DNA of 64,000 nucleotides from Candidatus Omnitrophota bacterium. Its GTDB lineage: Bacteria; Omnitrophota; Gorgyraeia; Zapsychrales; Fredricksoniimonadaceae. Under the pieces are notes generated by a model. The model did no database searches. It had not been told where the DNA came from and was given only the letters and a program-made list of their open reading frames with translations. Of the stretch, positions 5,208-43,573 are shown in pieces (position 1 is the stretch's first letter; each line of letters opens with the position of its first letter). The translations under genes and the position numbers were made by a program. The stretch spans positions 75,364-139,363 of the forward strand of contig CAIOPG010000017.1 of NCBI GenBank assembly GCA_903860135.1. Direction: 5' to 3'.

Positions 5208-5208
5208 A

Positions 5209-6030
5209 TCAATAGAGCACCTTTAGCGCATCCGCCAATTGTTCCTTGTTGGGCGCCTTCCCGTGCCAAGCGCTTTTAAGCTCCATGAACGGGACTCCCT
5301 TGCCCTTTAACGTCTGCGCAATGACGACCGTAGGCTTCCCCTTCATCCCCTTGAAATCATTGAAAGCCTTGATCAACAGATCAAGGTCATTGCCGTCAAT
5401 ATCGATGACATTCCAGCCAAAGCTCTTCCATTTATCCGCCAGCGGCTCAAGCCCCTTGATCTCGCTGACAAGGCCGTTCTCCTGCACCTTGTTATAGTCA
5501 ACAATGGCGCAAACATTATCCAGCTTGAAATGCGCCGCGGCCATGGCCGCTTCCCAGACCGACCCTTCCTGGATCTCGCCGTCACCCATCAGGCAATACG
5601 TCTTGAAATCCTTGTTCTTCAATTTCGCCGCCATGGCCACCCCGTTGGCATACGAAAGCCCGTGGCCGAGCGACCCGGTATTGAATTCAACCCCCGGCGT
5701 CTTTTTGGTCACATGCCCCTGCAGGCGACTGCCAAATTTGCGAAATGTCTTCAATTCTTCTTTGGGGAAATAACCAAAATTGGCCAGCGTCACATAGGTG
5801 ACCGGGGAAATATGCCCTTTGGAAATCACCAAACGGTCGCGCCCGTCCCACGCCGGATCAGCCGAACGGTGATTCATCACCACCGCGTAAAGGGCCACGA
5901 ATATCTCCACGGCGGACAATGACCCGCCAGGATGCCCCGAGCCTGCGGTCTCGAGGGTTTCAAGGATCTCACGACGCATCAACAAGGCCTGTGCTTTAAG
6001 GGCACTCAGATCGTATTTCTTGTCGGACAC
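5209..6030 (-). CDS. transketolase, N-terminal (TPP-binding) subunit; start refined to GTG at 6030
   Basis: GSGHPGGSLS…GDGE motifs; GAGGAG RBS 6 nt upstream of GTG (SDKKYDLS…); the longer track ORF (to 6096) would include the predicted promoter. Confidence 0.8.
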   Translation of the reverse strand: MSDKKYDLSALKAQALLMRREILETLETAGSGHPGGSLSAVEIFVALYAVVMNHRSADPAWDGRDRLVISKGHISPVTYVTLANFGYFPKEELKTFRKFGSRLQGHVTKKTPGVEFNTGSLGHGLSYANGVAMAAKLKNKDFKTYCLMGDGEIQEGSVWEAAMAAAHFKLDNVCAIVDYNKVQENGLVSEIKGLEPLADKWKSFGWNVIDIDGNDLDLLIKAFNDFKGMKGKPTVVIAQTLKGKGVPFMELKSAWHGKAPNKEQLADALKVLY

Positions 6031-6084
6031 AAATAACTCCTCGCGCAAAATCATTCCAGAGATTGACGGATAAAAAACGGGTTG

Positions 6085-6113
6085 AGTATAGGTCAATACC
6101 CGAAGCTAGTCAA
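6085..6113 (-). promoter_or_regulatory. sigma70-like promoter TTGACT-N17-TATACT upstream of the transketolase operon
   Basis: Read on minus strand: cTTGACTagcttcgggtattgaccTATACTcaacc. Confidence 0.45.
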
Positions 6114-6282
6114 GGCACTTTCTTGATTGCCGCCTTCAGATCGGCCATGAATGCCTGGGCCGGTGTCAGACGGGCCGTGCCATCGGGCCTCCCGCCCTTG
6201 ACCGTCCCATGGCGTGCCAGGGCCGAAGCCCCTGCCTGCTTTCCCTGTTTCTTGTGCCAGAACTGCACATGCCCTTTTTTGC

Positions 6283-6475
6283 TCACCGGACAGCACTCCG
6301 GCAGAAATTCGCGATGCTCCTGTCGTAAGTCTTCTCGGCATCCTTGGGGAAAAAACACCCCGGAATAGCCCCCTTGGCGCGGTGATACCGCACACATTCA
6401 CAGCACAACCCCTTGCGCGAACAGTCATACGTACACCCGCAGTCTTGCTTGTTCCGTTCTATCAGACATTCCATA
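6283..6475 (-). CDS. small cysteine-rich (probable metal-binding) protein, 63 aa from RBS-supported ATG
   Basis: AAAGAGGTG RBS then ATG; [43 protein letters not shown]… (C-x-C-x4-C-x5-CC-x-C pattern); overlapping alternative-frame ORFs in this GC-rich stretch look spurious. Confidence 0.5.
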
Positions 6476-6528
6476 AGCACCTCTTTGATTGGCAAGTCGT
6501 TCTGTCAAAAACTTTTGCTCCTAAAAAA

Positions 6529-6559
6529 CGGCTCATGCACGCTTCGGTTTATTGCCCTG
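6529..6559 (-). repeat. island core repeat, copy A (5'-truncated), immediately 3' of RhuM gene
   Basis: cggctcatgcacgcttcggtttattgccctg matches the cores at 8212, 11367, 14276, 14415. Confidence 0.6.
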
Positions 6560-6565
6560 TCTTCT

Positions 6566-7597
6566 TCACCCTTTCAACGCTTTCTTTTTATTTTCGAGAC
6601 GTTTTATTTCACGATCAAAATCATTCTCGAATAAACGATCCTGAACAATACGGTATTTTTCAAACTCGCTTTCCGCATGTTCTTTAGCAATCTGAGACGT
6701 TATCTTCCCGCTATTTTTCAAAATATCTCTGTCAGCAACTTGCAAAAACATATCCAAGCGCATTGACCAGTCTTCCATTGTCATTGGTATCCGTCGCTGC
6801 GCCCGGTCTTCGGCTAAATCCAAATAAGCGTTAACGATACGTCCTAAAGCCACAATTTCGTCTTTACTCAAATAGTTCTTCGCCACACTCACATCAGCCT
6901 TTAATATCTTTCCGTCGGGACTTCCCTCCCATGACGTCAATCCCATGTGTTTTTTCTGGCTATCTGCCCGTCTAACAATCAATTCCGCAGCCGTATATCC
7001 GTGAATGGCAAAATGCAATTTATTTTGTATCTTCGCAAAGAATGCCTGGGTGATAGCAGCTCGAGCGTCATAATCCATGCTGGTCGAATAAATATCCGTG
7101 ATTTTCTGATAGAAACGCCGCTCACTCATGCGTATTTCACGGATTTCCTCCAACACCCGTTCGTAATAATCCTCCCCAAGAAAAGCACCGTTCTCCAACC
7201 GCTTCTTATCCAGCACATACCCCTTGATGGCGAAGTCCTTCAAAATACGGGTTGCCCACTGCCGGAATTGCGTGGCTCTCAAAGAGTTCACCCGATATCC
7301 GACGGAGATAATCATGTCCAAGTTATAAAAATTAGTTTGGTATTTCTTGCCGTCCGCGGCAGTTATTAGGGATTTCCTAAGAACTGTCTTCTCATCGACT
7401 TCTTTGCTTGAAATGACATTCTTAAGATGCTCGTTGATTGTCGGGATAGCAACATCAAACAATTCAGCCATTAATTTCTGTGTCAGCCAGATCGTTTCGT
7501 CTTCATACCGCGCCTCAATACTTTTGTCACCCGATTGACTTGTAAAGATCAGAAATTCCGCCGTGCTATTGCGTATTTGAAGATTTCTTGCTTTCAT
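6566..7597 (-). CDS. RhuM-family virulence/DNA-binding protein
   Basis: …NLDMIISVGYRVNSLRATQFRQWATRILKD… classic RhuM core; start refined to MKARNLQI (AGGAA RBS). Confidence 0.85.
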   Translation of the reverse strand: MKARNLQIRNSTAEFLIFTSQSGDKSIEARYEDETIWLTQKLMAELFDVAIPTINEHLKNVISSKEVDEKTVLRKSLITAADGKKYQTNFYNLDMIISVGYRVNSLRATQFRQWATRILKDFAIKGYVLDKKRLENGAFLGEDYYERVLEEIREIRMSERRFYQKITDIYSTSMDYDARAAITQAFFAKIQNKLHFAIHGYTAAELIVRRADSQKKHMGLTSWEGSPDGKILKADVSVAKNYLSKDEIVALGRIVNAYLDLAEDRAQRRIPMTMEDWSMRLDMFLQVADRDILKNSGKITSQIAKEHAESEFEKYRIVQDRLFENDFDREIKRLENKKKALKG

Positions 7598-7645
7598 AAA
7601 TGTCATTTCCTGTTTAGCCCCATCTGATCCAGGCACGATCCAAGT

Positions 7646-8042
7646 TTATTGCACTGTTCTCTTTGCACCCTTGGCGAGCTTTTTCCCTTCCGCATTAAGC
7701 CGATGCGCCAGCTTATTGACATCTTCCTCGGCAGGCAACAATTCCGGTTTGATCCCGCTTTTCCCCAGTAATTCCCGAACTTCCCTATTATTTTTAACGT
7801 GCTCCCCCGTAATCGATGGCTCACCTTGCAAATTATTCCACCAGCACCATACGCTCCTCAAGCAACTCCACTGGCTTAAAACACGCCGTCTTAGCCTTGT
7901 CAACAACCAGCAGAAAATTCCGCTATTCGGTGTAATCCAGAAGCCTCTGAATATCCCGCGCCCTCCAGAACTCAACACCATCCTCAACACGCGCTGACCC
8001 TTCAAAATCCTTATTCAACTGCACGATGATCTCTTGTTTCAT
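7646..8042 (-). pseudogene. dinD-like remnant (N-terminal 39 codons, internal deletion, frameshift, C-terminal 60 codons)
   Basis: N-term MKQEIIVQLNKDFEGSARVEDGVEFWRARDIQRLLDYTE* and C-term NNLQGEPSITGEHVKNNREVRELLGK…KLAKGAKRTVQ* align with the intact copy at 11421-12263; central ~500 nt absent. Confidence 0.7.
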
Positions 8043-8084
8043 CAAACATTCCTTTGTTGGTAATTATTATCAAGGGGTAAGATA

Positions 8085-8113
8085 ATAATACCACTCACGT
8101 GTGTGGCTATCAA
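8085..8113 (-). promoter_or_regulatory. dinD-type promoter TTGATA-N17-TATTAT (copy upstream of the dinD remnant)
   Basis: Near-identical to the 12306-12334 promoter. Confidence 0.4.
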
Positions 8114-8142
8114 GTTGTTTTAGGACTTTCCGGTTCTTTGAG

Positions 8143-8285
8143 AACTTGTTCTCTTTTCTTATTCTACAACTCCTCCGGTGAAGCAAAACTACACGGGGAT
8201 ATTTAGGTCAAGGCATGCCAAGGGCGACTAATGCACGCTCTGGGGTTATTGCCCTGTCCCTAGACTGGGGACTGGGGACTGTCCC
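8143..8285 (-). repeat. island repeat, copy B (extended ~143-bp form; 45-bp core at 8212-8256)
   Basis: aacttgttctcttttcttattctacaactcctccggtgaagcaaaactacacggggatatttaggtcaaGGCATGCCAAGGGCGACTAATGCACGCTCTGGGGTTATTGCCCTGtccctagactggggactggggactgtccc; ~85% identical to 14205-14344. Confidence 0.65.
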
Positions 8286-8412
8286 ATTCGCGCACTCAAC
8301 TTCTGCCTCGACTTCTTACCCGAATTACCCATAATGCCTCCCTTGGTATCATGCGGTTCTGTCAAAAGTTCTAGCTTCCAACTCGCAAAGCCCTTGTATC
8401 TAAATAGCTTGC

Positions 8413-8580
8413 TTAACTTGAGACTCCCTCCCCCGCGTCTTTGGCGTGGGGAACATCATTATTCCAAAACCTTAAAACATCAAAGCCTTGACTCTTAAGC
8501 CATTCATCTCGCTTGAGATCCTTTTGATTCTGATTATGTTGACCACCATCAACCTCTATAACTAATTTCTTATCAAAACA
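8413..8580 (-). pseudogene. DUF559 (Vsr-like PD-(D/E)xK endonuclease domain) C-terminal fragment
   Basis: Stop-bounded frame encodes …KKLVIEVDGGQHNQNQKDLKRDEWLKSQGFDVLRFWNNDVPHAKDAGEGVSS*; N-terminal half of the domain missing. Confidence 0.6.
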
Positions 8581-8612
8581 TTACCTAAACCCCCGCCCTT
8601 CGCTTAAACAAC

Positions 8613-9941
8613 CTACCTCTTGACCAGACGGTCAACATCCTCAAGCCCTAGCGCCTGCCACTCGACCTTGTACTTTGGATAACTGGCGATCAATGTCTTA
8701 GACTTGACCTTTAGCCCCGCGAGATCAATTCGGTCCTTGTTCATCTTGATCTCGGCAATGACCATGGTCTTTTTCATATCGTTCATCGCCACCAGGTCGA
8801 TCTCGTTCTGGCCATCCTTCTCCCAATACGAGCCAATGCGGTTGTACTCACCGGTCTCGGCATACAACGTCTGAAAGAACCGTTCCAGGACGCGGCCGGC
8901 ATACGTGGAATAGTCACGCCTGATAATGTCCCGGATGTACTCAAAGTTCCCGGTCTCGACCGCGGACCGGTTGCGGTAAATGAACCGGAACCAGAAGGCC
9001 AAAAAGTTGTCCGCGATCCGGTACTTCTGCGCCCTGGAGTTCGGCTTGGCGTTCACCGGCTTGTACCTCTCGATAACAGCGTAATCACGCTCCAGCCGGT
9101 CGAGGAACCCGCCGACATCCGACTCCAGGATGGACTGGATCTCCGAGCGGCCCGTCTTCCCGACAGAAATCAGCTCAAGTATGGAGAAGTACGTCCCGTA
9201 CTCTTTGCCGAACTCCTCGATCAGGAGGTTCCTGCCTTCGTTCAGGGATGGCGAGTTGGCCTCAACCGCGAAGTTCAGGATCTTCTTAAACGTGAACGCC
9301 TGATTCTCCACCAGCTGATCAATGTACTTCGGGCTTCCGCCAGTAAAAAGATAATAGTCGAACAGCACGGACGCGTTCTTTATCTTGTAGTCCCGCAGAA
9401 TGCCGGCCATGGTGCCGATCGAGAACGGCTTGATCATGAACATCCGGTCTGCCCGGTTGAACAGCGGTTCCTTGGAGCCCTCAAAGATCTTGTGCATCAG
9501 GGAATACACTGACCCGACGCAAATGACGTTCAGCTTGCTCTTGGCCTTGTTCAGGTCCCAAAGCTTCTGTATCTCGGAATAAACGGACGGGTTGATATTA
9601 TAGAACTCCTGGAACTCATCAATGATGACCGTTAACGGTTCATCCTTGGCGATCTGGAGCAAAAGTTGAAAGACATCCGGGAAGGAGCGAATGTTCCCGA
9701 TCACGGGCGCGTCCGGATACAGCCGCTTGATCTCCGCGACGTATTCCTCACAAAGCAACGCCTCAGACTTCTTGGCCACGAAAAGGTACAGGTGCTTCTT
9801 GTCCTTGGCGAACTCCAGGGACAGCAGCGTCTTCCCCACGCGCCTGCGCCCGGTCAGGACGGCCATGCGGGAGCCACCCTTTGTCTGCCCCATCAACTTG
9901 TTTAACTCTGCCAGTTCCTGCTGCCGGTCATAGAATCTCAT
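8613..9941 (-). CDS. AAA+ ATPase of the Arch_ATPase/DUF234 family
   Basis: Walker A GRRRVGKT, Walker B VIIDEFQ; C-terminal DUF234-like region; start refined to MRFYDRQQ (GGAGG RBS). Confidence 0.8.
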   Translation of the reverse strand: MRFYDRQQELAELNKLMGQTKGGSRMAVLTGRRRVGKTLLSLEFAKDKKHLYLFVAKKSEALLCEEYVAEIKRLYPDAPVIGNIRSFPDVFQLLLQIAKDEPLTVIIDEFQEFYNINPSVYSEIQKLWDLNKAKSKLNVICVGSVYSLMHKIFEGSKEPLFNRADRMFMIKPFSIGTMAGILRDYKIKNASVLFDYYLFTGGSPKYIDQLVENQAFTFKKILNFAVEANSPSLNEGRNLLIEEFGKEYGTYFSILELISVGKTGRSEIQSILESDVGGFLDRLERDYAVIERYKPVNAKPNSRAQKYRIADNFLAFWFRFIYRNRSAVETGNFEYIRDIIRRDYSTYAGRVLERFFQTLYAETGEYNRIGSYWEKDGQNEIDLVAMNDMKKTMVIAEIKMNKDRIDLAGLKVKSKTLIASYPKYKVEWQALGLEDVDRLVKR

Positions 9942-10035
9942 AATTGTAACCTCCGTTACTGTAACCAAGGTTACTATATAAAGCGTGGTTTGTCAATGGC
10001 GGGATGAACATGTTTAGCGGGACCTCTGATTGACA

Positions 10036-10080
10036 CCCTCCTCCGCGAGCGAAGCGAGTGTGGGGGCATGGGAGGGGGCG
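10036..10080. repeat. 45-bp inverted repeat, left copy (pairs with 19944-19988)
   Basis: ccctcctccgcgagcgaagcgagtgtgggggcatgggagggggcg; reverse complement of the right copy at 42/45 positions. Confidence 0.65.
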
Positions 10081-10081
10081 T

Positions 10082-10187
10082 CAAAAAAACGTAGCGGGGA
10101 CACGTACACAACGCCCGGTTTCTCTACTTTTCTATACGCTCTTCGGTTCACGTGCGTTAAATACGCAAAAGTGGGTATTGTGTCCCC
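10082..10187 (-). terminator. long GC-clamped stem-loop (GGGGACACA…TGTGTCCCC, ~75-nt loop region) followed by T7 run, downstream of the 326-aa ORF
   Basis: Minus strand: cGGGGACACAatacccac…cgttgTGTACGTGTCCCCgctacgTTTTTTTga. Confidence 0.4.
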
Positions 10188-10200
10188 GAAACGGTTCCTC

Positions 10201-11181
10201 TTACCATTTGAAACTCCTTAACAGATCATCCAGCGCAGACTGCACGCGCTCATCATGGCTATCCTTCAAAGACAGGTACACCGAGATCTTGTCAGCGCAT
10301 CCGTTCTTAGAAAAGCGGCCCGGCGAATACTTCCAGATCTCGACCTCAACCGCACCGCGGTCAGGCACCGGGATGATATGACCACGATGTTCCTGTGCCA
10401 AATGCTTCCAATCATTGTACGACACAGCCACGGTCCTGGCCTCTGGTTCATTGATCATAGACCACTTGGCCAATGCCGTGTGGCCAGCTGGGAAGGCCCT
10501 CTTAAAATTCAGGTTTGTGACATAAACGCGTTTCTTAACCGGGGTCTTCAGGTACGGCTGGACCTGATTCCAAAGCTCTTTGCGATTCATGCTAAAACGC
10601 AGACAGCGATTCTTCCCCGCCATCGTATGTTCACCGATCCCGAGCGCCGCCAGCTCATCAAAGGCACGTGTCATGGTCATGGCAGAAACCTCAAGAAACA
10701 AAGCGACTTCGGCCGGCGTGAGCGTCAACTTCTCCCCCTGATAGAGCGCATAAAGGACAAGCATCTGCGTTGCCGGCCGCAAAACTGGTCTCTTGGTACG
10801 AAGGGTCTTTAGGCACTCCTTAAGATCAATGGCCAAAAACGGAAGATACATCTGATTCCCGGGTACAACAAATGGAACCTTTTGTTCAATGAGGCGCTTG
10901 CGTTCATAGAAGTTGATCGCCTCCGCAACATAGACAACATCCATGCCGCAACGACCACGGACCTGGTCAAGCTGCTTGGCGATGACAGCCGGCGTGAGCG
11001 CGACATCCTTTTCACCTGTCATGATCAGGCACGTCCCTTTAAGCCAGTTCAGGCTGAAAAAGCGATAGCCTTCCCTTAAATAAGCTGGATAATTGGCTGC
11101 ATCGGGAAAAGGACGCACCGCGGCCTCTATTCCAAGGTTCGCCAGCAGGTATTTCTGAAGCGCTTCTACTATCTTATCCAT
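10201..11181 (-). CDS. hypothetical protein with central winged-HTH (326 aa)
   Basis: AAGGA RBS; …QMLVLYALYQGEKLTLTPAEVALFLEVSAMTMTRAFDELAALGIGEH… wHTH-like segment; no confident family assignment. Confidence 0.6.
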   Translation of the reverse strand: MDKIVEALQKYLLANLGIEAAVRPFPDAANYPAYLREGYRFFSLNWLKGTCLIMTGEKDVALTPAVIAKQLDQVRGRCGMDVVYVAEAINFYERKRLIEQKVPFVVPGNQMYLPFLAIDLKECLKTLRTKRPVLRPATQMLVLYALYQGEKLTLTPAEVALFLEVSAMTMTRAFDELAALGIGEHTMAGKNRCLRFSMNRKELWNQVQPYLKTPVKKRVYVTNLNFKRAFPAGHTALAKWSMINEPEARTVAVSYNDWKHLAQEHRGHIIPVPDRGAVEVEIWKYSPGRFSKNGCADKISVYLSLKDSHDERVQSALDDLLRSFKW

Positions 11182-11294
11182 AAATAATCCTTAACATTAC
11201 AATACAACAATAACATATGATATGATATTGTGCAAATATGATGTTAGCATAACTGGCAGCGATTAGCCTTGTAAATTATTCCACCAGCAAGAAA

Positions 11295-11360
11295 TTACGC
11301 CTCAACACGCGCCGACCCTTCAAAATCTTTATTCAACTGCACGAGGACTTCTTGTTTCAT
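11295..11360 (-). pseudogene. dinD 5' fragment (21 codons) fused directly to core repeat C
   Basis: MKQEVLVQLNKDFEGSARVEA* identical to N-terminus of the intact dinD. Confidence 0.55.
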
Positions 11361-11366
11361 CAAACA

Positions 11367-11409
11367 GGCATGCCAAGGACGGCTCATGCACGCTCCGGTT
11401 TATTGCCCC
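11367..11409 (-). repeat. island core repeat, copy C (3' of intact dinD)
   Basis: GGCATGCCAAGGACGGCTCATGCACGCTCCGGTTTATTGCCCC. Confidence 0.6.
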
Positions 11410-11420
11410 TCGCATTGCTA

Positions 11421-12263
11421 TTAGCCCCGCACTCTCTTTACACCCTTGGCGAGCTTTTTCCCTTCCGCATTAAGACGACGCGTCAGCTGCTTGACATCTT
11501 CCTCGGCAGGCAACAATTCCGGTTTGATCCCGCGTTTCCCAAGCAATTCCCGAACTTCCCTATTATTTTTAACGTGCTCCCCCGTGATCGATGGCTCACC
11601 TTGCAAATTATTCTTCTTCGTATTAAAACCTGTGATCTCAGCCGCGAGATCCTTTGCCTTGATCGTGATCGTAGGCAAGAAATCCGCCAGAGGTTTCTGA
11701 ACGGGAACCCCCATTTTCTTCTTCATTTCTAATGTCGAATTCCCGCCAAACAGCGCCTGATCACCTTGACTGCGCAACCGCGCAAAACCATCTCCATCAA
11801 CACCGTGCTCATAAACAACACCAGATAACCTAGCCTCTGTATCAGCCAGTTTCTGACGAGCCTGCAAGCGCTCTACCAACGCAATACGTTCTTCGAGCAG
11901 TTCCTGTTTGCGGGTTTGAATAGCAAAATAACTTTGGGCAAACGCAATCTGTTCTTTCCGAGGATCACCGTTCTGCGCGATTAGATAACAGGCATACCGG
12001 GTAAGCTGCATGTCCTCGACAGACCGCTGGCTACCCGACCCAAGATCAACCATTTTGTTGACGTCAACAAAATGGTCTGAAACAATCTGCCTAGACTTCA
12101 AACACGCCGTCTTAGCCTTGTCAACAACCAGCAGAAAATTCCGCCATTCCGTATAATCTAGAAGCCGCTGAATATCCCGCGCCATCCAGAACTCAACACC
12201 ATTCTCAACACGCGCCGACCCTTCAAAATCTTTATTCAACTGCACAAGGACTTCTTGTTTCAT
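11421..12263 (-). CDS. dinD: DNA-damage-inducible protein D (DinD)-like protein
   Basis: AAAGGAA RBS + ATG; MKQEVLVQLNKDFEGSARVENGVEFWMARDIQRLLDYTEWRNFLLVVDKAKTACLKS… resembles E. coli DinD family. Confidence 0.75.
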   Translation of the reverse strand: MKQEVLVQLNKDFEGSARVENGVEFWMARDIQRLLDYTEWRNFLLVVDKAKTACLKSRQIVSDHFVDVNKMVDLGSGSQRSVEDMQLTRYACYLIAQNGDPRKEQIAFAQSYFAIQTRKQELLEERIALVERLQARQKLADTEARLSGVVYEHGVDGDGFARLRSQGDQALFGGNSTLEMKKKMGVPVQKPLADFLPTITIKAKDLAAEITGFNTKKNNLQGEPSITGEHVKNNREVRELLGKRGIKPELLPAEEDVKQLTRRLNAEGKKLAKGVKRVRG

Positions 12264-12305
12264 CAAACATTCCTTTGTTGGTAATTATTATCAAGGGGCA
12301 AGATA

Positions 12306-12334
12306 ATAATACCACTCATGCGTGTGGCTATCAA
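12306..12334 (-). promoter_or_regulatory. promoter TTGATA-N17-TATTAT upstream of dinD
   Basis: Minus strand: cTTGATAgccacacgcatgagtggTATTATtatct, ~45 nt upstream of ATG. Confidence 0.45.
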
Positions 12335-12356
12335 GTTGTTTTAGAACTTTCCGGCT

Positions 12357-13437
12357 CTATAACAATATGTTCTTTGTCTCATTTTTTACAACCGCAAGTG
12401 CCCAGTAAAAGTACGCCTCAGGAAGAGCCGCTCTCAATTTTTCAAGGATTTTGTACTTCTCAGGAAAAACACGATCCTTGACCATGCTCATATCGACCTG
12501 CTTAACCATCTTCCCCGCCTTTCCCTGACGCAGAATACTGATGACATAGGCTATTCTGGCAAATGAAATCTTGATCCTATCCGGACTTAACCTGGCACGC
12601 AGATGATTAGCAACTCTGGCGTTGCCGTCATTCAAAAGTCCAATCTCTTCAAAGGCAGTGTTACCTCCACGAAGAAGTGCCTGCGAATACCGGAAAGCGA
12701 TCTCCGTAATATCATCAAAGACATCATCACTTGAATGTGCGCTATTCCTGAATCCATTTTCGACCATGACCGTATTCACAAATGATCGGCGTAACTCTTC
12801 AACATCATCGGCGACTTTGAACAGTTCGCCAAGGTCAATGATCTGCTTCATAAACTCCATGGTCCGATCCGGCACCAGCGGGATTCCCATTGTCTTCGGC
12901 GATATGGCCGTCAATTTATCGCCAAGCAGTCCCTCAACCGTAGGAACATTGACTACGCCACGCGCTCCGGCGAACGCCATGGGATTGGTGGCAATATCCT
13001 TTTGAAGCAAGCTTCCATAAGGCGCTTCTGTGAAAACCACATCCAGCAAGACATACTGCTGGATCTTGGAGAAATGCGACGTGATCGGAAATTTGAAATG
13101 CGCCTTCGGGATCGTCTTATTCTTGCGATGGCTCTCTTCAATACCTTCAAACCAATCGGAATCCGCGGCCATCTGCGTCAGCCTTTCCGACAAACCTTCT
13201 TTTTCAGAAGGCGGCAAAAGAATGTCAATGTCGATCGAGAGCCTTGCCGGTGGGAAAATATGAAGCAACAGCGATGTCCCGCCCTTGAAAACAAGATCGG
13301 GATAACTCTTCACGACCTCGCTCAACAGATTGAACGCGTAAACAGACTTTTCAAATATACCCGGATCCTTAAACCCCAGCTCATTCCTCAAGGACTCCAT
13401 CCGGTCACGATCAATGATCCGCTTTGCCATGCCCATC
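12357..13437 (-). CDS. AbiEii/AbiGii-family nucleotidyltransferase toxin (type IV TA)
   Basis: …FKGGTSLLLHIFPPARLSIDIDILLP… NTase GG(T/S)…DxD motifs; overlaps upstream AbiEi gene. Confidence 0.8.
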
Positions 13438-14187
13438 CCTCTTTGAGGTAACTTTGTCGACATATTTCAGATATGTAGCGAACGTTACCCTATCAAGTCC
13501 TTCTTTTTCAACAAGTTGTGAATATATGTCACGAAAGTACCTCCGCGCTTTGGCATACCTGACAAAATCACTGACGTTAACCCTATAAAAGTCATCAACG
13601 CTTTCTAAAAGCTCCCAGTAATCGGCATTAGCCATAGTGGCATACCTATCCTTAATGACAAACAAGTCCACCAGCATCTTTTCAAGAGCAGCTGCATGCC
13701 TTTCCCGCGGGGATTCTTTATTCAGCAGTCTGACAACGATCGGATCCCGCGTAATATCAAAGCCTTTGGGTGCTACACGGCTTGTTTTCTCGATCAACAC
13801 AAATCGGTAATCGCGCGAAATCCTGTCAAACACGGTATGAATCGCATCAAATTCCACTTCGACAAAAGTGATGTTGTGGGTCTGCTGGTGATGATAATAC
13901 GGCTGGAAAGTCAACGTGTTCCAGATGATGAAATCCAGCTCAGGATATTCCCTGGTCAGCATCTGGCGGATCTCGGCCACACGGCTCTTTTCTTCTGTCA
14001 GGGGGAATGTTTTGGCAATGTTACTATAGATCCCGCGCCCGGCAGAAAAGACAACACCCGCCTCCTTGAGCTCATGAAGATACTTCTTGGCAAGCGGCCG
14101 GGTGATCCCGGCAATCTTCACGACCTCTTCAAGGCTGAAGTAACGATGATGCACCGCATGCTCTTTGACTAAAGTTTTTTTATCCAA
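13411..14187 (-). CDS. AbiEi-family antitoxin (N-terminal wHTH), TTG start
   Basis: …FSLEEVVKIAGITRPLAKKYLHELKEAGVVFSAGRGIY…; GAAGGTGG RBS before TTG. Confidence 0.75.
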   Translation of the reverse strand: MDKKTLVKEHAVHHRYFSLEEVVKIAGITRPLAKKYLHELKEAGVVFSAGRGIYSNIAKTFPLTEEKSRVAEIRQMLTREYPELDFIIWNTLTFQPYYHHQQTHNITFVEVEFDAIHTVFDRISRDYRFVLIEKTSRVAPKGFDITRDPIVVRLLNKESPRERHAAALEKMLVDLFVIKDRYATMANADYWELLESVDDFYRVNVSDFVRYAKARRYFRDIYSQLVEKEGLDRVTFATYLKYVDKVTSKRDGHGKADH

Positions 14188-14204
14188 GGGCCACCTTCGC
14201 TGAT

Positions 14205-14344
14205 AACTTGTTCTATTTTCTCATTTTCTACAACTCCGCCGGTGAAGCAAAACTACACGGAGATATTTAGGTCAAGGGTATGCCAAGGGCGGCTAATGCA
14301 CGCTCCAGTGTTATTGCCCTGATCCTAGACTGGGGACTGTCCCC
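14205..14344 (-). repeat. island repeat, copy D1 (extended ~140-bp form; core 14276-14321)
   Basis: aacttgttctattttctcattttctacaactccgccggtgaagcaaaactacacggagatatttaggtcaaGGGTATGCCAAGGGCGGCTAATGCACGCTCCAGTGTTATTGCCCTGatcctagactggggactgtcccc. Confidence 0.65.
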
Positions 14345-14414
14345 TTCGCCTTCGCTCCCTTCTACGGAATACCCGCCTCCACGATTGGTCGGGTATGGGT
14401 GGGGGGAAATAACA

Positions 14415-14459
14415 GGCATGCCAAGGGCGGCTCATGCACGCGCCGGGATTATTGCCCTG
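14415..14459 (-). repeat. island core repeat, copy D2
   Basis: GGCATGCCAAGGGCGGCTCATGCACGCGCCGGGATTATTGCCCTG; overlaps the 3' end of the membrane-protein ORF. Confidence 0.6.
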
Positions 14460-15150
14460 TTCCCGGCGGATGGACAGTTCCAAGCACTTCTACATTCTCA
14501 ATAAAAAGAGCGATCTTATTTATCTTTCTCCTAACAAAGTTTCGACACATCGCAGAAAAAACATTTTTAGTATGTTCTCTTATTTTCCATAAGAAAATTA
14601 TAACAAGACCCCAAATAATAAAAAGAATGCAGGGCATAAAACAACTTTTAAATTCGGGATGAGTATACCCTGTAAGAATTAATAAAAACGTGAATACATT
14701 TCCTAATAAGATTGAAAAGAGCACCGCACCAAATGAATGCACTCTAGAAACCAATTCATGACTTCTTTCACGGTACTCATTTTCATTCTCTAATATCAAA
14801 AACGTTTCTAAACACCAAGAAAGTTGACTGTTTTTTGACAATTTGTCAATATTAAGAAAATCTTTTTCCAAAAGATATTCTTTCTTAATTGTCTTTAATT
14901 CATTCCTTATGCAATATCCTTCTTTGCCATCCAAGTCTTCTAAATCTCTCAATACATGCCAAGCTAAATATACTGCTTGAATAATAAAACCAATCGGAAA
15001 ACCAGCTATTAAGATTGTCAATAAATTCTTCCAGTCGCCTAATACAGTGTTCCCCTGTAAATAAATCCAGTACACGCCTACAACAAGTAAGAAGATATAC
15101 CCTGGAACAGCAATCCTAAAAAAGTCATGGCGATCGTAATTGTCACTCAT
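14449..15150 (-). CDS. AT-rich hypothetical membrane protein (4 predicted TM helices)
   Basis: 233 aa; hydrophobic segments FFRIAVPGYIFLLVVGVYWIYL, LTILIAGFPIGFIIQAVYLAW, FGAVLFSILLGNVFTFLLILTGY, CILFIIWGLVIIFLW; local A+T content much higher than flanks; C-terminal 10 codons are encoded by repeat D2. Confidence 0.5.
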   Translation of the reverse strand: MSDNYDRHDFFRIAVPGYIFLLVVGVYWIYLQGNTVLGDWKNLLTILIAGFPIGFIIQAVYLAWHVLRDLEDLDGKEGYCIRNELKTIKKEYLLEKDFLNIDKLSKNSQLSWCLETFLILENENEYRERSHELVSRVHSFGAVLFSILLGNVFTFLLILTGYTHPEFKSCFMPCILFIIWGLVIIFLWKIREHTKNVFSAMCRNFVRRKINKIALFIENVEVLGTVHPPGTGQ

Positions 15151-15387
15151 TGTAATTTCTCCAAAGTAATACCCCGTGGCATCTACTAAATTACTTTAAA
15201 ACGAATTGTGCATTAGCCGTCTTTAAACGGCGATGCCGTTCTGCAAAAAAATACGTTGTAATTCCAATGGGCCCTTCACAAGCTTACCGCCAAGGAAAAA
15301 CCTTGGTTCACCCCGAATTACCATTTCTATTAAAGAATATGGAGATACATACGCCTACTTTCTCCACTTAAACACCGACCACCTTCA

Positions 15388-16518
15388 TCACTTCATTCCA
15401 TCTGCCGTGGTCTTCCAATGGCTTCCCGGACTAGGAAGATACTCAACTCCGTTCAACACGACCGGCTTGGCCCCAGCTTGAGAAGCGCCCGGCGAAACGA
15501 TGGTATCCGCGCGAAATCTCTTTCCTTGTGGAAGAGCCACTTCTCCTCGAATTTCTTTTGCCGTAAGTCGACGACAACTGCCATCGGGTAACTCTATCCA
15601 ACTGTATGTACCACCCTCCGTCTTCTCCTTCTTTTGCTGCCAAAGAGTTCTATACTTTACCTTTGCCTTATCGCGCGCATACCAAATAAGATAGTCATGC
15701 GTGCTGCTTAATATTTCCGAGGTAAAAGCAGATGTTTTTATAAACGCAATCTGTCCGCAAAACTGTTCCCCTCCAAAAACCTCATCCATTATTTCCCGGA
15801 CATGATGTAAATTCTCGTCGCTAATCTGAACAAAACAACTGCCACTTTCAGTAAGCAAATCTCTTGCCACAATTAGCCGATCTCGCAAATATGAAAGATA
15901 TGAATGAACGCCTAATTCCCAAGTATCTCGAAACGCCTTAATTTGTTCCGGCTGTCGAACAAAGTCCTCTACCTTGTTATCTTTCACATCGCGTTTCCGT
16001 GTGCTCGCCTGCCAGTTTGAGCCAAACTTAATGCCATAAGGTGGATCAACATAAACACACTGCACCTTACCGCGCATACCCTCTTTCTCAAGAAGACTGT
16101 TCATAACAAGCAAGCTATCCCCAAGAACCATGCGGTTCTGCCAATTATCTTCGTGTTTATAAAATTCAACCGTCTTATCAAACTGCTGCTGAGTTGTGTC
16201 TCCAAAAAGAGTTAACTGAGCCTCTTCTTTCCCTCCCTGCTTTAGTCGAGCAATGATCGCTTCAGGAGCAACTTTTTCTTGCACATAAATCGGCACCGTT
16301 GACACCGCCAGCTCAACTCCCGCTTCTTTCTTCCCCGCCCAAATTAACTGCGGATCTAAAGATGGGTCGAAGTCGTAGCGCTTTTTAGCGGGCTGCTTAT
16401 CACGGGCAGATAGCTTCTCAGACTCTTCCTGAGTAGGAATGCGCTTACGCTTGTCAGTGTGCTTGTAAGAATCCACAGCTGCAGCCTCAGTTGTACGAAC
16501 TTTAAATTTTCTTGCCAT
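15388..16518 (-). CDS. mod: type III R-M methyltransferase (Mod) N-terminal portion, C-terminally truncated (no FxGxG/AdoMet motif)
   Basis: DPPY (…VYVDPPYGIKFGSNWQ…) catalytic motif present; protein ends after 376 aa inside what would be the TRD; all three downstream frames lack MTase motif I. Confidence 0.7.
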   Translation of the reverse strand: MARKFKVRTTEAAAVDSYKHTDKRKRIPTQEESEKLSARDKQPAKKRYDFDPSLDPQLIWAGKKEAGVELAVSTVPIYVQEKVAPEAIIARLKQGGKEEAQLTLFGDTTQQQFDKTVEFYKHEDNWQNRMVLGDSLLVMNSLLEKEGMRGKVQCVYVDPPYGIKFGSNWQASTRKRDVKDNKVEDFVRQPEQIKAFRDTWELGVHSYLSYLRDRLIVARDLLTESGSCFVQISDENLHHVREIMDEVFGGEQFCGQIAFIKTSAFTSEILSSTHDYLIWYARDKAKVKYRTLWQQKKEKTEGGTYSWIELPDGSCRRLTAKEIRGEVALPQGKRFRADTIVSPGASQAGAKPVVLNGVEYLPSPGSHWKTTADGMK

Positions 16519-16521
16519 AAA

Positions 16522-19488
16522 TTATTTCCCAATATTAGTGAATCCGTTAGCGATACCTGCTCGAATGAGATTTTGAGTTTCATGAATATCCTGCACCTCA
16601 AGAAGCGCCCATTGTCCGAACCGCCCGTTGTTGTTAATCGCCGGAATCCAGTACTCACGAGCAGTCTTAACTTTTATTGTCTTCTTGTCATCCTTTTTAC
16701 CCGTAACTTCCAACAGTAAATTAAGAATACCCTTGTCAGGCATTTCAAGCTTCACTAGGAAGTCCGGAACGTATTGCCTTCCGACTCCTTGATATTCATA
16801 AGGTATCGAGAACCCAAGGTTCTGATTCTTTACATATGTTAAGACTTCATTCATCTGCTCCAACTTCTTGGCAACACCTTGCTCCCACTCCTCCGTATCA
16901 GCGACAACATAGTTCACATGGCTTTTAATTGTCTCCTGCACTGGGCGCGTCGTTAAAAAGTCTACATAACGTGTTGACCCAATGGTGTCATAAGGCGCTA
17001 AGATCGGCAGAATTTTACGATCTTTCTGGCTGGAGATATTATCTGCAACTATCGCCTGATGAATCTTGGTAAGAGCTCCACGATAATATTCGCCAATAGT
17101 TAAATAGCCGATGATCATACGGTCTTTCAGCACAACATGCTTCTTAACATACTCTTCCGCAATCCTCTTAAGCTGAGGCCCAAGCCAATACTTTTCTGAA
17201 CCATCTGCATCCTTGAAGTATGTCTTCAAAAGGCCTTCCATCAAACGGATGATGACCTCACCCTCACGACGATCTTTGATCTTCTGAAGATTCTCTGTCA
17301 CACCCTCGCCGATAATACCATCGAGTTCCACCTCAGTAGGCTCGTTCTCAATAATCGTCTTAGATTCTTCTGTAAAGTTAGCAGCCAGTTTCGTTTCGTT
17401 GAGTTCATAACGATAACCCTCAACTCGCGGATAAGTGATCTCATACTTCTCGCGCTCTGGTAAAGACTTAACGCGGTGAATGACTTTAGGTTCTTGTGGC
17501 CCGGCATCCCCTTCAACACGTAAGAAACTAAACGGCACACCATAAACTTCCGCGTACTCAGGGGCAAGTAATCCTGTTGCCTCATCGATATGATAGTCAA
17601 TCCTTCGCAAAGCACGACCAACAACTTGCTCACAAAGAAGCTGCGTCGAGAAAGCGCGTACGCCTAAAATATGCGTTACCGTGTTCACATCCCAACCTTC
17701 AGTAAGCATCGACACGCTAACAACACACTTGATGCTCTCTCCCAGCTTCTCAGGTTTGCCAACGGTGTTCATGACCTCACGCAGCAACTGCTCATCCGTT
17801 GGGTCTTCTCTGCCGGGGAATCTCTTTCGATATTCTTTATGAAAATCGTCGATCTCTTTAGTGAAGATCTTTTTAAAGTCGTCATTGATCTTCTCACCGC
17901 TTTCGATCTGCGCACTATCAATCAACAGCGTGTTAGGCCGCTCAAGAAACCTGACGCCATCTTCATTACGAAAGATATCTAAATGACCCTTTTCAATCAG
18001 CAGCTTCCCACTTGGCGTCTCATGCTCAAAGCCAGCAATCCAACGGTAAACCATTTCGGAAACAGTTGTGTTGTTACAGACCACGATCATCACGGGTGGC
18101 ATAACCGCCGGATTCGTTTTTCGGTGTTTTTCATACACCGCATGATATTTTTCATAACTACCGTAAAGAGATTCTAATGCCTCTTCGAGCGTCTTCGGCA
18201 AGGCAATGGATGTTAAATCATACTGACCTGTTCGCATTCCCCTTTTCGGCAAATCATCCCGAACATGCAACCAAAGGTTACGAAATTCAGGTTCATCATC
18301 TTTCGTGATGTTGTCCGACTTCACAGGCAAGCGAGGAATCTTGACCACGCCACATTCAAGAGCATCAAGTAATGAGAAATCAGAGATCACCCAAGGGAAA
18401 AGTGTTCCTTCCTGATACCCGGAACCACGCAAGAAATACGGTGTCGCTGACAAATCAATAACCGCATTAATATTAATCTTCTGCGCCAATGCCTCTATCC
18501 CGCTAATCCACACACGGGCAGCCTCATTGTTTTCATCTGCCTCTTTGCGATCCTCCCCGGAAAGCTTGTCTTCAGTAGCTTTCTCCCGATAACAATGATG
18601 CGCCTCGTCGTTGATAACAATGATTCTTGGTTTGCTCAAAAGCCCCTTAAAAACACGATTCACCATTGCCGCCGGTGTCTCTTTAATAGCAGACTCCTTG
18701 ATTAACCCCGTGGCCTTGATGACCGCGCCTAAAGAAAACCTTGAGTTTTGCCGTAGCTCCAACTGATGGTAATTTGTGATAAAAACATGGGCCGCTTGCA
18801 ATAGCTCAAGGTCTTGATGTGACACAATATCACGCTGAGTGTAATAATTTTGAGGGTCATTCGGCAATAACACATTCAAGCGATCTCTGATCGTGATGCC
18901 TGGGGTAATCAGAACGAAAGCATCTGTAAAGCGGGTATCCATTGGGTAACGGATCTTGTTCAAAGTATTGTACGCTATGATCATTCCCATAACAACGGTT
19001 TTACCTGAGCCGGTAGCCATCTTCAAAGCAATACGATAAAGACCGGGGTTGGATTCATGCCCAGCCTTCTTCAGCTCATTAATAATCCAACTCTCGCCAC
19101 TCTTCTCTGCAACCTCATTGACGTACATCAATGTTTCAAGTGCTTCGATCTGACAAAAAAACAACTTGTTATCGCGGTTCTCATCTTTCCAGTAATAAAG
19201 CAAATCGCGGGAAGTTTTGGTCAAGCCGGGATAATCCGCGTTTCGCCACGCGCTAACCTTCGCGCGCACCTTGTTAATGAATTCGTTCTCTTGCTGCAAT
19301 TCACTCCCGTACGCACCCTCAGCAACATTCTGTTCTTCACGCTTCTTTAATGTCTTAGCTCGGGGAACTGGAATAAAGAAACTGCTTGGACGACGGGATT
19401 CAACGATTTCATTTGAGATGCCCTTTTCATCAGACTTAAAGTGCAATGCAGACACTTTATACGGCGAATTGAGTATCGAAGATTTCAT
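16522..19488 (-). CDS. res: type III restriction enzyme Res subunit (SF2 helicase + PD-(D/E)xK nuclease)
   Basis: 988 aa; TGSGKT, VINDEAHH, SATP, EGWDV helicase motifs; C-terminal …YVPDFLVKLE…LLLEVTGK nuclease motif. Confidence 0.85.
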   Translation of the reverse strand: MKSSILNSPYKVSALHFKSDEKGISNEIVESRRPSSFFIPVPRAKTLKKREEQNVAEGAYGSELQQENEFINKVRAKVSAWRNADYPGLTKTSRDLLYYWKDENRDNKLFFCQIEALETLMYVNEVAEKSGESWIINELKKAGHESNPGLYRIALKMATGSGKTVVMGMIIAYNTLNKIRYPMDTRFTDAFVLITPGITIRDRLNVLLPNDPQNYYTQRDIVSHQDLELLQAAHVFITNYHQLELRQNSRFSLGAVIKATGLIKESAIKETPAAMVNRVFKGLLSKPRIIVINDEAHHCYREKATEDKLSGEDRKEADENNEAARVWISGIEALAQKININAVIDLSATPYFLRGSGYQEGTLFPWVISDFSLLDALECGVVKIPRLPVKSDNITKDDEPEFRNLWLHVRDDLPKRGMRTGQYDLTSIALPKTLEEALESLYGSYEKYHAVYEKHRKTNPAVMPPVMIVVCNNTTVSEMVYRWIAGFEHETPSGKLLIEKGHLDIFRNEDGVRFLERPNTLLIDSAQIESGEKINDDFKKIFTKEIDDFHKEYRKRFPGREDPTDEQLLREVMNTVGKPEKLGESIKCVVSVSMLTEGWDVNTVTHILGVRAFSTQLLCEQVVGRALRRIDYHIDEATGLLAPEYAEVYGVPFSFLRVEGDAGPQEPKVIHRVKSLPEREKYEITYPRVEGYRYELNETKLAANFTEESKTIIENEPTEVELDGIIGEGVTENLQKIKDRREGEVIIRLMEGLLKTYFKDADGSEKYWLGPQLKRIAEEYVKKHVVLKDRMIIGYLTIGEYYRGALTKIHQAIVADNISSQKDRKILPILAPYDTIGSTRYVDFLTTRPVQETIKSHVNYVVADTEEWEQGVAKKLEQMNEVLTYVKNQNLGFSIPYEYQGVGRQYVPDFLVKLEMPDKGILNLLLEVTGKKDDKKTIKVKTAREYWIPAINNNGRFGQWALLEVQDIHETQNLIRAGIANGFTNIGK

Positions 19489-19534
19489 CCGTTAACTCCC
19501 TTAAAGTTTAGAATCCCACTATTCAAGAATGTGC

Positions 19535-19888
19535 TCATTTTAAGCTCTTCTTTTTCATCTTTTTAATACTATTTTCAATTCTTTCACGTTCTCTCTCAAT
19601 CATTCTTCTCTTCTTGAACTCTGTAAACGTCATTTTCTCGTCGCCCATAAAGACTTCGATTCTTTTGTTGGGTATTTTGTTTATTAAATGAGCTTCAGTA
19701 ATTTTAGAAACTTCTTCGTCAAATACAGAAATCCTTTTTCTTAAATCTGCAAACTGAACCATAATTTCATCATTGCTATATATTGAAATTATATGCCCAA
19801 GTCCAAGTTTCTTAGAATAAACTTTATCCGTTACTTTTAGATCATCAAATACTCTTAATACTGGTAATGAATCAAACATATTCTCCAC
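19535..19888 (-). CDS. AT-rich hypothetical protein (117 aa) immediately upstream of res
   Basis: ORF with Lys/Glu-rich C-terminus; no recognisable family; strongly A+T-rich relative to window. Confidence 0.4.
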   Translation of the reverse strand: MENMFDSLPVLRVFDDLKVTDKVYSKKLGLGHIISIYSNDEIMVQFADLRKRISVFDEEVSKITEAHLINKIPNKRIEVFMGDEKMTFTEFKKRRMIERERERIENSIKKMKKKSLK

Positions 19889-19943
19889 ACATCTGCTCCT
19901 AGCTTAATTCATAAAAATCGAACTACTCTATTTTGCTATATAC

Positions 19944-19988
19944 CCCGCCCCCGCCCATTCCCCCACACTCGCGTCGCTCGCGGAGGAG
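19944..19988. repeat. 45-bp inverted repeat, right copy (pairs with 10036-10080)
   Basis: cgcccccgcccattcccccacactcgcgtcgctcgcggaggaggg. Confidence 0.65.
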
Positions 19989-20191
19989 GGTTTCATTTTC
20001 AGAAATTTTTATTTTTATCTTTCGTAATACCACAACCCCGCGCCAGCGTCATAAAAAACTATTCAAACCGGAGAAAGCGGGTATTCCAAACGTCCTTGAA
20101 ATACCCTAACACCATAAGCTTCTGGCATGGAATGGTCAATCGAAAAAATCATCGACGCTCACTCTCCCCACACCGGGAATGCCCCGTCGAG

Positions 20192-22579: not shown

Positions 22580-23454
22580 GAGAGAACCTTGGGCTGGCTG
22601 GCGGTTAAGAGGGCCTCCCACATTTTGGCCTTGATCTTTTCAGGCAGTTGTATCTCGGCCCAATGCTGGAACGCAAGGACCGCCTGAAAAAAAAGCATCC
22701 TGAGCCCGTTGACCGCCCTAGCGCCCCGGCGTCGGGCCATGGCCAACAGCTTCGTTTCGGCCGGATTGTAAACCAGGTCATAGACCATCATGCCCGCATG
22801 CAGCCATTCCTCCTTGACCAGGCAGGGATCATCAGCCTTCATGCCGATCGGCGTGGCATTGATCAACAGGTCAGCCGTTTCAATGTTCAGCGCCGCGACA
22901 CTGGCCACGATCTTGACACTTGAGGTATCCATGCGTGCGGAAAGATCCCGCACCAGGGCACCCGCCCGTTGCTGATCCACATCAAAAACCCTGATCTCGC
23001 GTGGCTTTTCCGGCAACAAGCAAAGCACGCTGATCAGCGCGCGCGAGGCCCCGCCAGCGCCAAGGATCGCCACCGCACGGCCTGCAGGATTAAACCCTTC
23101 CTCAGTCAGATGGGTCATAAAGCCCGGGCCGTCGGTATTGCGTCCGATCAGCTTGCGGTCAGCGGTAATAACAACCGTATTCACAGCCCCGACCTTGGTC
23201 GCAAAAGGATCGAGCGCATCGAGGAAAGGGATCACATTTTCCTTGTGGGGAACAGTCACATTGAGCCCGAAAATATGGCTTTCTTTTGCCTTTAACGCCG
23301 TGAAGAAGTCAGCCAACGCTTCCTGTTCCATGGGAAAAAGTTCATACACCGCATCCACCTCGAGCGCGGCCAACGCCGTGTTATGGATCACCGGCGATAA
23401 ACTGTGCCCCAAGGGATACCCCACCAGACCGTATGTTGTTCTCATCATTGTCAT
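22576..23454 (-). CDS. aroE: shikimate dehydrogenase
   Basis: …LVGYPLGHSLSPVIHN… AroE N-terminal signature; 292 aa. Confidence 0.85.
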   Translation of the reverse strand: MTMMRTTYGLVGYPLGHSLSPVIHNTALAALEVDAVYELFPMEQEALADFFTALKAKESHIFGLNVTVPHKENVIPFLDALDPFATKVGAVNTVVITADRKLIGRNTDGPGFMTHLTEEGFNPAGRAVAILGAGGASRALISVLCLLPEKPREIRVFDVDQQRAGALVRDLSARMDTSSVKIVASVAALNIETADLLINATPIGMKADDPCLVKEEWLHAGMMVYDLVYNPAETKLLAMARRRGARAVNGLRMLFFQAVLAFQHWAEIQLPEKIKAKMWEALLTASQPKVLS

Positions 23455-43558: not shown

Positions 43559-43573
43559 TCAGTTGAAATAAAA

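Follow-up and report, generated by a model that had tools for sequence, protein, structure and literature searches.

A probable defence island of stacked modules between the fba and transketolase genes of a Candidatus Omnitrophota bacterium

In type III restriction-modification (R-M) systems Mod provides both methylation and target recognition, and in AbiE systems a nucleotidyltransferase (NTase) toxin is held in check by an antitoxin. The dinD gene of Escherichia coli is SOS-regulated, and toxin-antitoxin (TA) and defence genes are typical cargo of chromosomal integrons. AbiE has been described as a type IV TA and abortive-infection system (PMC3985639), and for RhuM the role of a toxin associated with R-M loci has been proposed (PMC3710099). 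Relatives of Mod, AbiE, DinD and RhuM are encoded close together in a 64-kb stretch of contig CAIOPG010000017.1 from a Candidatus Omnitrophota bacterium (hereafter the window), between fba, the gene of class II fructose-bisphosphate aldolase, and a DUF6485 gene followed by the split transketolase genes tktN and tktC. The region is interpreted here, with a probability of roughly 80 %, as a chromosomal accessory defence island composed of stacked independent modules of diverse donors and reshaped by duplication and deletion. All positions refer to the window, and labels L001 to L177 denote the loci and contigs used for comparison.

The island extends from about 6511 to 20190 (approximately 13.7 kb). 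On one side it is bounded by fba (20253-21263, minus strand; PF01116), a conserved flank outside the island with a G+C content of 0.58 and a G+C content at third codon positions (GC3) of 0.75, and on the other by the DUF6485 gene and tktN/tktC (4257-6054). According to the list of open reading frames (ORFs), every sizeable ORF of the fba-to-transketolase interval lies on the minus strand. The 13 items enumerated in this interval by an earlier sequence-only reading were all recovered in the ORF list and in profile searches, on that strand and where they had been placed. One of them, a gene for a small Cys-rich protein (6283-6474, minus strand; Pfam DUF6485, E = 9.4e-07), is indeed present. It had been counted as part of the island and has to be assigned to the conserved core flank, since it adjoins fba in the genome L004 discussed below; its G+C content of 0.55 is consistent with this assignment. 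The same reading spoke of many decayed genes. Four fragments are visible (Mod, two copies of dinD and DUF559) and one additional deletion, that of the partner gene of wHTH326, is predicted beyond those listed earlier, so decay is real; the wording was nevertheless too strong, as nine genes are intact (those of AbiEi, AbiEii, DinD, RhuM, the DUF234 ATPase, Res, a membrane protein, orf117 and wHTH326).

The variable presence of the region was documented by comparison with relatives. In L004, a Candidatus Omnitrophota metagenome-assembled genome (MAG) and the closest genome found, with an fba gene 90 % identical to that of the window, the DUF6485 gene (76 % identical) follows 80 nt after the fba stop codon. 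L004 thus lacks the entire interval from about 6.51 to 20.2 kb of the window, and it has no tkt after DUF6485. In the more distant genome L030 a single membrane-protein gene separates fba from tktN/tktC. The earlier expectation that the two flanks would be adjacent in some relatives was therefore borne out for fba and DUF6485, as an empty site in L004, and failed for fba and transketolase.

A second, smaller difference was found in L085 (Logan assembly SRR26280456), which is 98 % identical to the window across DUF6485-tkt. Upstream of DUF6485 this contig carries 41 nt matching window positions 8408-8368, i.e. the sequence immediately past the DUF559 fragment, followed by TTTTGACAGAAC and then by the window sequence from 6498 downwards. 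The structure of this junction means that L085 lacks window positions 6511-8355, a segment of 1,845 nt comprising two copies of a short repeat (c4 and c5, described below), a leader, a dinD remnant and rhuM. In the window the segment is flanked by copies of the 12-nt direct repeat TTTTGACAGAAC at 8356-8367 and 6499-6510 (minus strand). Among the exact-protein look-ups only the DUF6485 query gave such an informative variant; queries with fba, tktN and rhuM led to arrangements like that of the window or to short contigs stopping near the island edges. Short contigs from other samples that break near these edges are L002, L003 and L084. L003, which stems from a different BUCK21 sample, agrees fully with the window over 200 nt past fba and then differs in its last 3-4 nt (positions 1385-1395, corresponding to window position ~20057, just before the contig end). 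The difference is due either to an error at the end of the assembly or to a second form of the junction on the fba side of the island.

The base composition of the island differs from that of its surroundings, with a G+C content of about 0.46 versus about 0.55 (0.54-0.60) in the flanks. The two A+T-rich blocks reported earlier at ~14.45-15.2 and ~19.5-19.9 kb were confirmed as troughs at 14.5-15.25 kb (G+C 0.30-0.34) and 19.25-20.0 kb (G+C 0.34-0.38). The patchiness claimed earlier is seen in single genes as well: GC3 spans 0.28-0.79 and falls into at least five classes. Core genes have values of 0.66-0.75, the DUF234 gene 0.785, the wHTH326 gene 0.60, dinD, abiEi and abiEii 0.51-0.55, and rhuM, mod and res 0.43-0.48, followed by the membrane-protein gene with 0.30 and orf117 with 0.28. 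Five GC3 classes are better explained by several donors than by one acquisition. The island is also rich in internal repeats, with 14 pairs (1,124 aligned nt), whereas three equally large core segments contain 0, 1 and 0. The absence of the region from L004, the indel in L085, the defence-related content recognized by PADLOC and the patchy GC3 together support the proposal of a mosaic island formed by repeated insertion and deletion; the opposite outcome, a uniform composition and a gene order shared with distant relatives, was not encountered.

The PADLOC search that had been recommended yielded matches to AbiEi, AbiEii, MTase_III (N-terminal 40 %), REase_III and Csx27 (both weak), PDC-S05, PDC-S13 and PDC-S27. 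AbiEi/AbiEii, DinD, RhuM, the DUF234 ATPase and the BA5345/Csx27-like membrane protein look functional, because the profile matches are full length. The type III-like R-M system, the wHTH/NTase pair, DUF559 and two of the three dinD copies appear from their sequences to be disabled. Each module would have a defence function.

The AbiE pair looks like the only canonical system of the island that is intact. The AbiEi-type antitoxin/regulator (13411-14187, minus strand) belongs to the DUF6577 family (Pfam, E = 2.8e-40) and matches the PADLOC AbiEi profile (E = 4.2e-34) with residues 6-225 on positions 7-234 of 240; its match to the winged helix-turn-helix (wHTH) model AbiEi_4 is weak. The AbiEii NTase toxin (12357-13463, minus strand; Pfam AbiEii, E = 8.5e-19) aligns to the corresponding PADLOC profile (E = 8.7e-79) with residues 14-358 on positions 4-341 of 344 and shows the KGGTSL...DIDIL motif in its translation. 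The two genes overlap by 53 nt as listed (13411-13463), or by 20 nt with the called AbiEii start (357 aa).

The only canonical restriction system is incomplete. Res (16522-19488, minus strand) is a full-length type III-like restriction endonuclease of the BPTD_3080 family: it matches NCBIfam NF046055 with 1114 bits, residues 2-976 on model positions 2-967 of 970, has a Pfam ResIII match as well as GSGKT and DEAH motifs in the translation, and matches PADLOC REase_III weakly. It is 43-50 % identical to plasmid-borne homologues, each of which adjoins a Mod of 937-986 aa. The Mod of the island (15388-16518, minus strand; PADLOC MTase_III) comprises the N-terminal ~40 % of such a protein, its residues 15-376 aligning with 13-385 of the pAQ5 Mod (937 aa) at 50 % identity. 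Motif IV, DPPY, is kept at residue 158 and the protein ends at residue 376; the SAM-binding motif CGSGTT (motif I), which full-length relatives carry near residue 460, falls past the break. The C-terminal ~550 residues are absent, and no further Mod fragments were found anywhere in the window. Since Mod is required for methylation and for target recognition, the R-M system would be dead, with no methylation possible and no target recognition for Res, which itself is uneroded.

About 240 nt past the Mod break begins the A+T-rich gene (14449-15150, minus strand; G+C 0.33) of a 233-aa protein with four hydrophobic segments. This protein matches NCBIfam NF052507 (BA5345; E = 2.6e-10) at the cut-off and PADLOC Csx27 weakly (E = 3.9e-07), and a search of 1.8 billion proteins gave 55 cluster representatives at E<=1e-3. 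The context of its one close homologue, encoded on a contig of 1.6 kb, is uninformative. At the opposite end of res lies the small A+T-rich orf117 (19535-19888, minus strand; G+C 0.30), for which profile searches gave no family match above threshold. Of its three homologues one (P0124) is encoded within another defence island, which hints that orf117 may travel with such islands. In that locus (L177; GCA_964348765.1, CAYGEE010000031.1, 1-17646) the homologue, 53 % identical, is located between a pair of SIR2 and DUF87 (HerA-like) genes and a Mrr_cat gene. Further members of that island are a type III R-M system, DUF4391/SNF2 as a pair, RelB/YafQ, a Tn3 transposase and an integrase.

The dinD gene is present in three states. 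The intact copy (11421-12266, minus strand) encodes a Bro-N domain protein matching the NCBIfam DinD equivalog (E = 4.7e-104), PADLOC PDC-S13 (E = 2.6e-111) and the HsdS-fused model PDLC03083 (E = 1.3e-45). A pseudogene (7646-8045, minus strand) carries a premature stop (W-to-stop) and an internal deletion of ~480 nt, on either side of which it is 90-94 % identical to the intact copy at the nucleotide level. The third copy is a stump of 100 nt (11267-11366, minus strand). Its 5' fragment (11301-11366), 21 codons followed by a stop, is 98.5 % identical to 12204-12269, and the 23 nt at 11267-11289 are 96 % identical to 7824-7846, the stump and the pseudogene having a common deletion junction. 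The intact gene is preceded by a promoter-like site, TTGATA-17-TATTAT (12306-12334, minus strand). This strong sigma-70-like site, preceded by TG, is kept upstream of a second dinD copy at 8085-8113 (minus strand); its spacer contains an imperfect palindrome, GCCACACGCATGAGTGGT in one copy and GCCACACACGTGAGTGGT in the other, which may be a putative repressor operator.

RhuM (6566-7636, minus strand; Pfam, E = 3.6e-108) is intact and matches PADLOC PDC-S05 (E = 6.7e-152) with residues 21-352 on positions 5-339 of 342. In the PDC-S05 model PDLC04871, positions 1-128 are matched by DinD and positions 124-460 by RhuM, so this model looks like a fusion of both proteins. Among 80 other dinD loci, rhuM was found within 4 kb in five and a Mod-like gene nearby in three.

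The wHTH326 gene (10201-11181, minus strand) encodes a 326-aa protein of three domains with a central wHTH. An AlphaFold (AF2) model of pLDDT 85 shows the three domains, of which only the central wHTH is matched by Foldseek against the Protein Data Bank (PDB); in a sequence search of the PDB no match fell below E = 0.3. A relationship to AbiEi was rejected (hhalign probability 2 %). The protein has 982 homologues, with lengths of 326-328 aa among the matches listed, and only one relative was found in viral contigs. In every context read (L167-L174) the homologous gene is followed, with an overlap of 7 nt, by a 253-aa gene with the NTase-like motif GGAACDL...GTKDLDIVL (L167, 6137-6898; L168, 8975-9736; L171, 3098-3859). 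Apart from a weak MarR-type match of wHTH326, neither protein is matched by a model of Pfam, PADLOC or NCBIfam. The two genes constitute a candidate new AbiE-like TA pair. The homology of the window to L167 (91 % at the nucleotide level) ends at position 10197, 10 nt into the partner gene, of which the codons for MVRG remain; the putative toxin gene would thus have been deleted and wHTH326 left as an orphan. In L168 and L169 the pair adjoins AbiE-type genes, and in L167 and L172 it adjoins SLFN-like helicase genes.

The remaining modules are an intact P-loop ATPase of the DUF234/ATPase_2 type (8613-9968, minus strand; Pfam DUF234, E = 2.4e-16; ATPase_2, E = 9.5e-14; PADLOC PDC-S27, E = 1.3e-42), with the Walker A motif GRRRVGKT, and the C-terminal fragment of a DUF559, Vsr-like endonuclease (8416-8580, minus strand), whose 55 codons cover positions 50-98 of 109 of PF04480 (E = 2.6e-16).

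These features suggest the following history. Anti-phage and TA modules would have been acquired from donors of differing base composition and stacked between fba and DUF6485-tkt, and the island would later have been reshaped by duplication and deletion, the order of events being a matter of interpretation. Gain and loss may have proceeded through recombination at short direct repeats, namely the 44-48-nt repeat called 'c', the 32-nt copies on both sides of abiE and the 12-nt copies around the unit of dinD remnant and rhuM, as well as by exchange via the conserved flanks. A recombinase resident at the locus is not a likely agent, because none is encoded within 10 kb. The modules would act as separate defence or addiction units: AbiE by abortive infection, and possibly also DinD, RhuM, the ATPase and the membrane protein.

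The repeat 'c' is a direct repeat of 44-48 nt located at module borders, reading CAGGGCAATAA..AGCGTGCATKAGCCGCCCTTGGCATGCC on the minus strand. Copy c1 (14415-14462; nhmmer, E = 2.7e-16) overlaps the 3' end of the membrane-protein gene and stands in tandem with c2 (14277-14324), their starts being 138 nt apart; between c2 and abiEi lies a leader of 89 nt (14188-14276). Copy c3 (11367-11413; E = 1.1e-14) comes directly after dinD. Copy c4 (8212-8259) is followed by a leader of the c2 type that runs straight into dinD, with no abiE in between. The truncated c5 (6527-6560; E = 4.1e-08), 97 % identical to c3 over 30 nt, follows rhuM and is the final feature of the island before the core. These five copies and a degenerate c6 (7631-7659; E = 0.087) at the junction of the dinD remnant and rhuM are on the minus strand. 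A partial inverted copy, c' (15197-15236, plus strand; E = 0.075), lies upstream of the membrane-protein gene and has the 12-nt exact core GTGCATTAGCCG; the evidence for both c6 and c' is weak.

Two homologous units are delimited by these copies, the first reading c2, leader, abiEi, abiEii, dinD and c3, and the second c4, leader, dinD remnant, c6, rhuM and c5. They are 89-94 % identical where aligned; the stretch 14201-14339, for example, shares 89 % identity with 8139-8274. An imperfect 32-nt repeat stands on both sides of the abiE operon (14201-14232 and 12361-12392) and occurs once in the second unit.

Such an arrangement brings to mind an integron-like array of co-oriented cassettes with 'c' as the recombination site, served by a distant site-specific recombinase or by Campbell-type single crossovers. 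In favour of it, all copies in the window, five clear direct ones and two weak ones, are confined to module borders, rhuM stands between c6 and c5 and abiE-dinD between c2 and c3, c1 and c2 are in tandem, the terminal c5 is cut exactly where core DNA resumes, and all genes point the same way. However, the precomputed Pfam families of the genes up to 10 kb away in both directions include neither IntI nor another recombinase, and the supposed cassettes are multi-gene units of 1.7-3.1 kb with promoter-like sites. The copies c2 and c4 can be accounted for by duplication of a unit of at least 139 nt plus dinD, and the sole indel observed between strains joins at the 12-nt repeat and not at 'c'. The repeat was also absent from viral contigs, Joint Genome Institute (JGI) metagenome contigs, the 80 other dinD loci and the other loci fetched. 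Folding of four copies gave z-scores of -0.2 to -2.2 relative to shuffled sequences and predicted structures that differ between copies, and no conserved R''/R' boxes (RYYYAAC/GTTRRRY) could be read in the 'c' alignment. Thus, an array of this kind is considered unlikely, and the claim that 'c' serves multi-gene exchange of defence or TA cassettes at this locus in Omnitrophota in the manner of an integron, through a trans-acting enzyme or through Campbell-type crossovers on portable homology, is equally doubtful. As a structured RNA or an attC-like hairpin 'c' was rejected, because the fold z-scores were not significant and the structures inconsistent; Rfam models, scanned over the island with a limit of E<=1, gave no match. 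A check by eye for a dif/Xer site, a sigma-54 promoter or a Tn402-like end revealed no consistent fit across the copies.

A second kind of repeat bears on the possibility that the island is one degraded integrative element which has lost its integrase or transposase. A 52-nt inverted repeat has arm A (19946-19997) near the fba-side edge of the island and arm B (10029-10080) inside the DNA replacing the lost partner gene of wHTH326. The arms are 92 % identical, both read TGA(A/C)ACCCTCC... from outside to inside, and they bracket 9.9 kb from orf117 to wHTH326, as the former ends of an element might. Arm B adjoins a deletion, as expected of transposon-end events, and a homologue of orf117 lies in an island with a Tn3 transposase and an integrase. 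On the other hand, the arms enclose only part of the island and have no target-site duplication; no significant fold was detected, and no further copy in the window or in viral contigs. The five GC3 classes argue against one donor, and a sub-module is independently polymorphic between strains. No recombinase, transposase or integrase family was found among the island proteins or in the Pfam families of genes called up to 10 kb on either side, and no tRNA gene inside the island, within 10 kb of it or otherwise nearer than 36 kb. The island contains no phage or conjugation genes, its only PHROGs matches being DinD, Mod and Res. An origin from a plasmid or phage was rejected, as megablast of the island against plasmids and phages gave no match. 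A single decayed element is accordingly regarded as very unlikely.

The arrangement was seen repeatedly. Matching sequence occurs on the 399-kb European Nucleotide Archive (ENA) metagenome scaffold BUCK21-1 and in several further assemblies; the island arrangement recurs in L001/L086, in the Logan contig L084 (100 % identity) and, with identical gene order, in an ERZ1426828 contig. Contigs of 0.2-1 Mb are among those carrying it, and L084 crosses the rhuM-DUF6485 junction at 100 % identity. This recurrence in independent assemblies argues against a chimera. The best matches of fba and of wHTH326 are found in Candidatus Omnitrophota MAGs, and from these matches the host is probably an Omnitrophota bacterium. 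A conserved native cluster of odd composition, to which the host-like G+C of the DUF234 and wHTH326 genes could point, or a mis-assembly, conceivable for a MAG with short contigs breaking near the island edges, is extremely improbable given the absence of the island from L004, its partial absence from L085 and its presence in ENA and Logan assemblies alike.

The reading as a stacked defence island has its own weak points. Presence and absence are documented by one relative (L004) and by 41 nt of one strain (L085); with two states per event, insertion and deletion cannot be told apart. None of the relatives compared has fba directly adjoining tkt. The DUF234 and wHTH326 genes may be old residents rather than recent imports, since their G+C is host-like. 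PDC-S05 (RhuM), PDC-S13 (DinD) and PDC-S27 (DUF234) are candidate defence families, and the sole canonical restriction system is broken, so that present-day defence would be mainly the task of AbiE.

Some observations were made beside the island. A G+C-rich ORF of 58 aa (6110-6286, minus strand) overlaps the DUF6485 stop and precedes tktN; it has no family match on record, is called in several assemblies, with another frame choice as 95 aa, and its position is occupied in L004 by an unrelated 281-aa ORF. On the other side of fba, a prepilin peptidase (A24) ORF (21365-22621, minus strand) is listed with 418 aa and called with 404 aa in L001, whereas its counterpart in the closest relative L004 has 270 aa. 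The homology between them falls into two separate blocks, suggesting that ~135-150 aa have been inserted between A24_N and Peptidase_A24. At a distance of 24 kb the island is accompanied by a complete rRNA operon (16S, tRNA-Ile, tRNA-Ala, 23S and 5S; 43572-48811, minus strand).

The locus provides a clean and well-bounded case of a defence island turning over in a lineage that is uncultured and probably belongs to the Omnitrophota, and changes no concept. Gain of modules of several origins, inactivation of an R-M system by loss of its methylase and targeting functions, loss of a putative toxin leaving its regulator and an indel between 98 %-identical strains are displayed at a single site, which may be of use for the annotation of such genomes. 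The wHTH/NTase pair and the border repeats are possibly worth more than the island itself; if the latter were true recombination sites, they would point to cassette exchange without a local recombinase.

Compared with described systems, the AbiE pair conforms to type IV TA systems in the overlapping order abiEi then abiEii, in its near-full-length PADLOC matches and in the NTase motif GG..DxD. It differs in that AbiEi is of the DUF6577 type and the upstream region is common to the second, abiE-less unit. The R-M genes resemble those of the BPTD_3080 family on Picosynechococcus pAQ5 and Methylomagnum pRS11DPr6 in their order, res then mod, in a Res that is full length relative to the model and in the 50 % identity to the N-terminal 385 residues of the pAQ5 Mod, whereas the island Mod lacks ~550 C-terminal residues, including CGSGTT, and has the A+T-rich membrane-protein gene next to it instead. 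As in R-M loci with DinD and RhuM as accessory genes, dinD and rhuM are adjacent and models of HsdS-fused DinD and of a DinD-RhuM fusion are matched; here, however, dinD is threefold, with one intact and two decayed copies, and the copy adjoining rhuM is a pseudogene. With integron cassette arrays the island has in common co-oriented genes separated by a recurring short site, but it has no nearby IntI and no attC-like fold or boxes, and its units are multi-gene with promoter-like sites.

In comparison with defence islands in general, this site is without a mobility gene or tRNA, its host belongs to an uncultured lineage, its only restriction system is inactivated and a lineage-specific repeat of 44-48 nt marks the module borders. 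Typical of such islands are the clustering of R-M, AbiE and PADLOC candidate genes, the patchy composition, the variable presence and the pseudogenes among intact systems. The island is therefore an ordinary one, with components from described families, in a poorly studied lineage.

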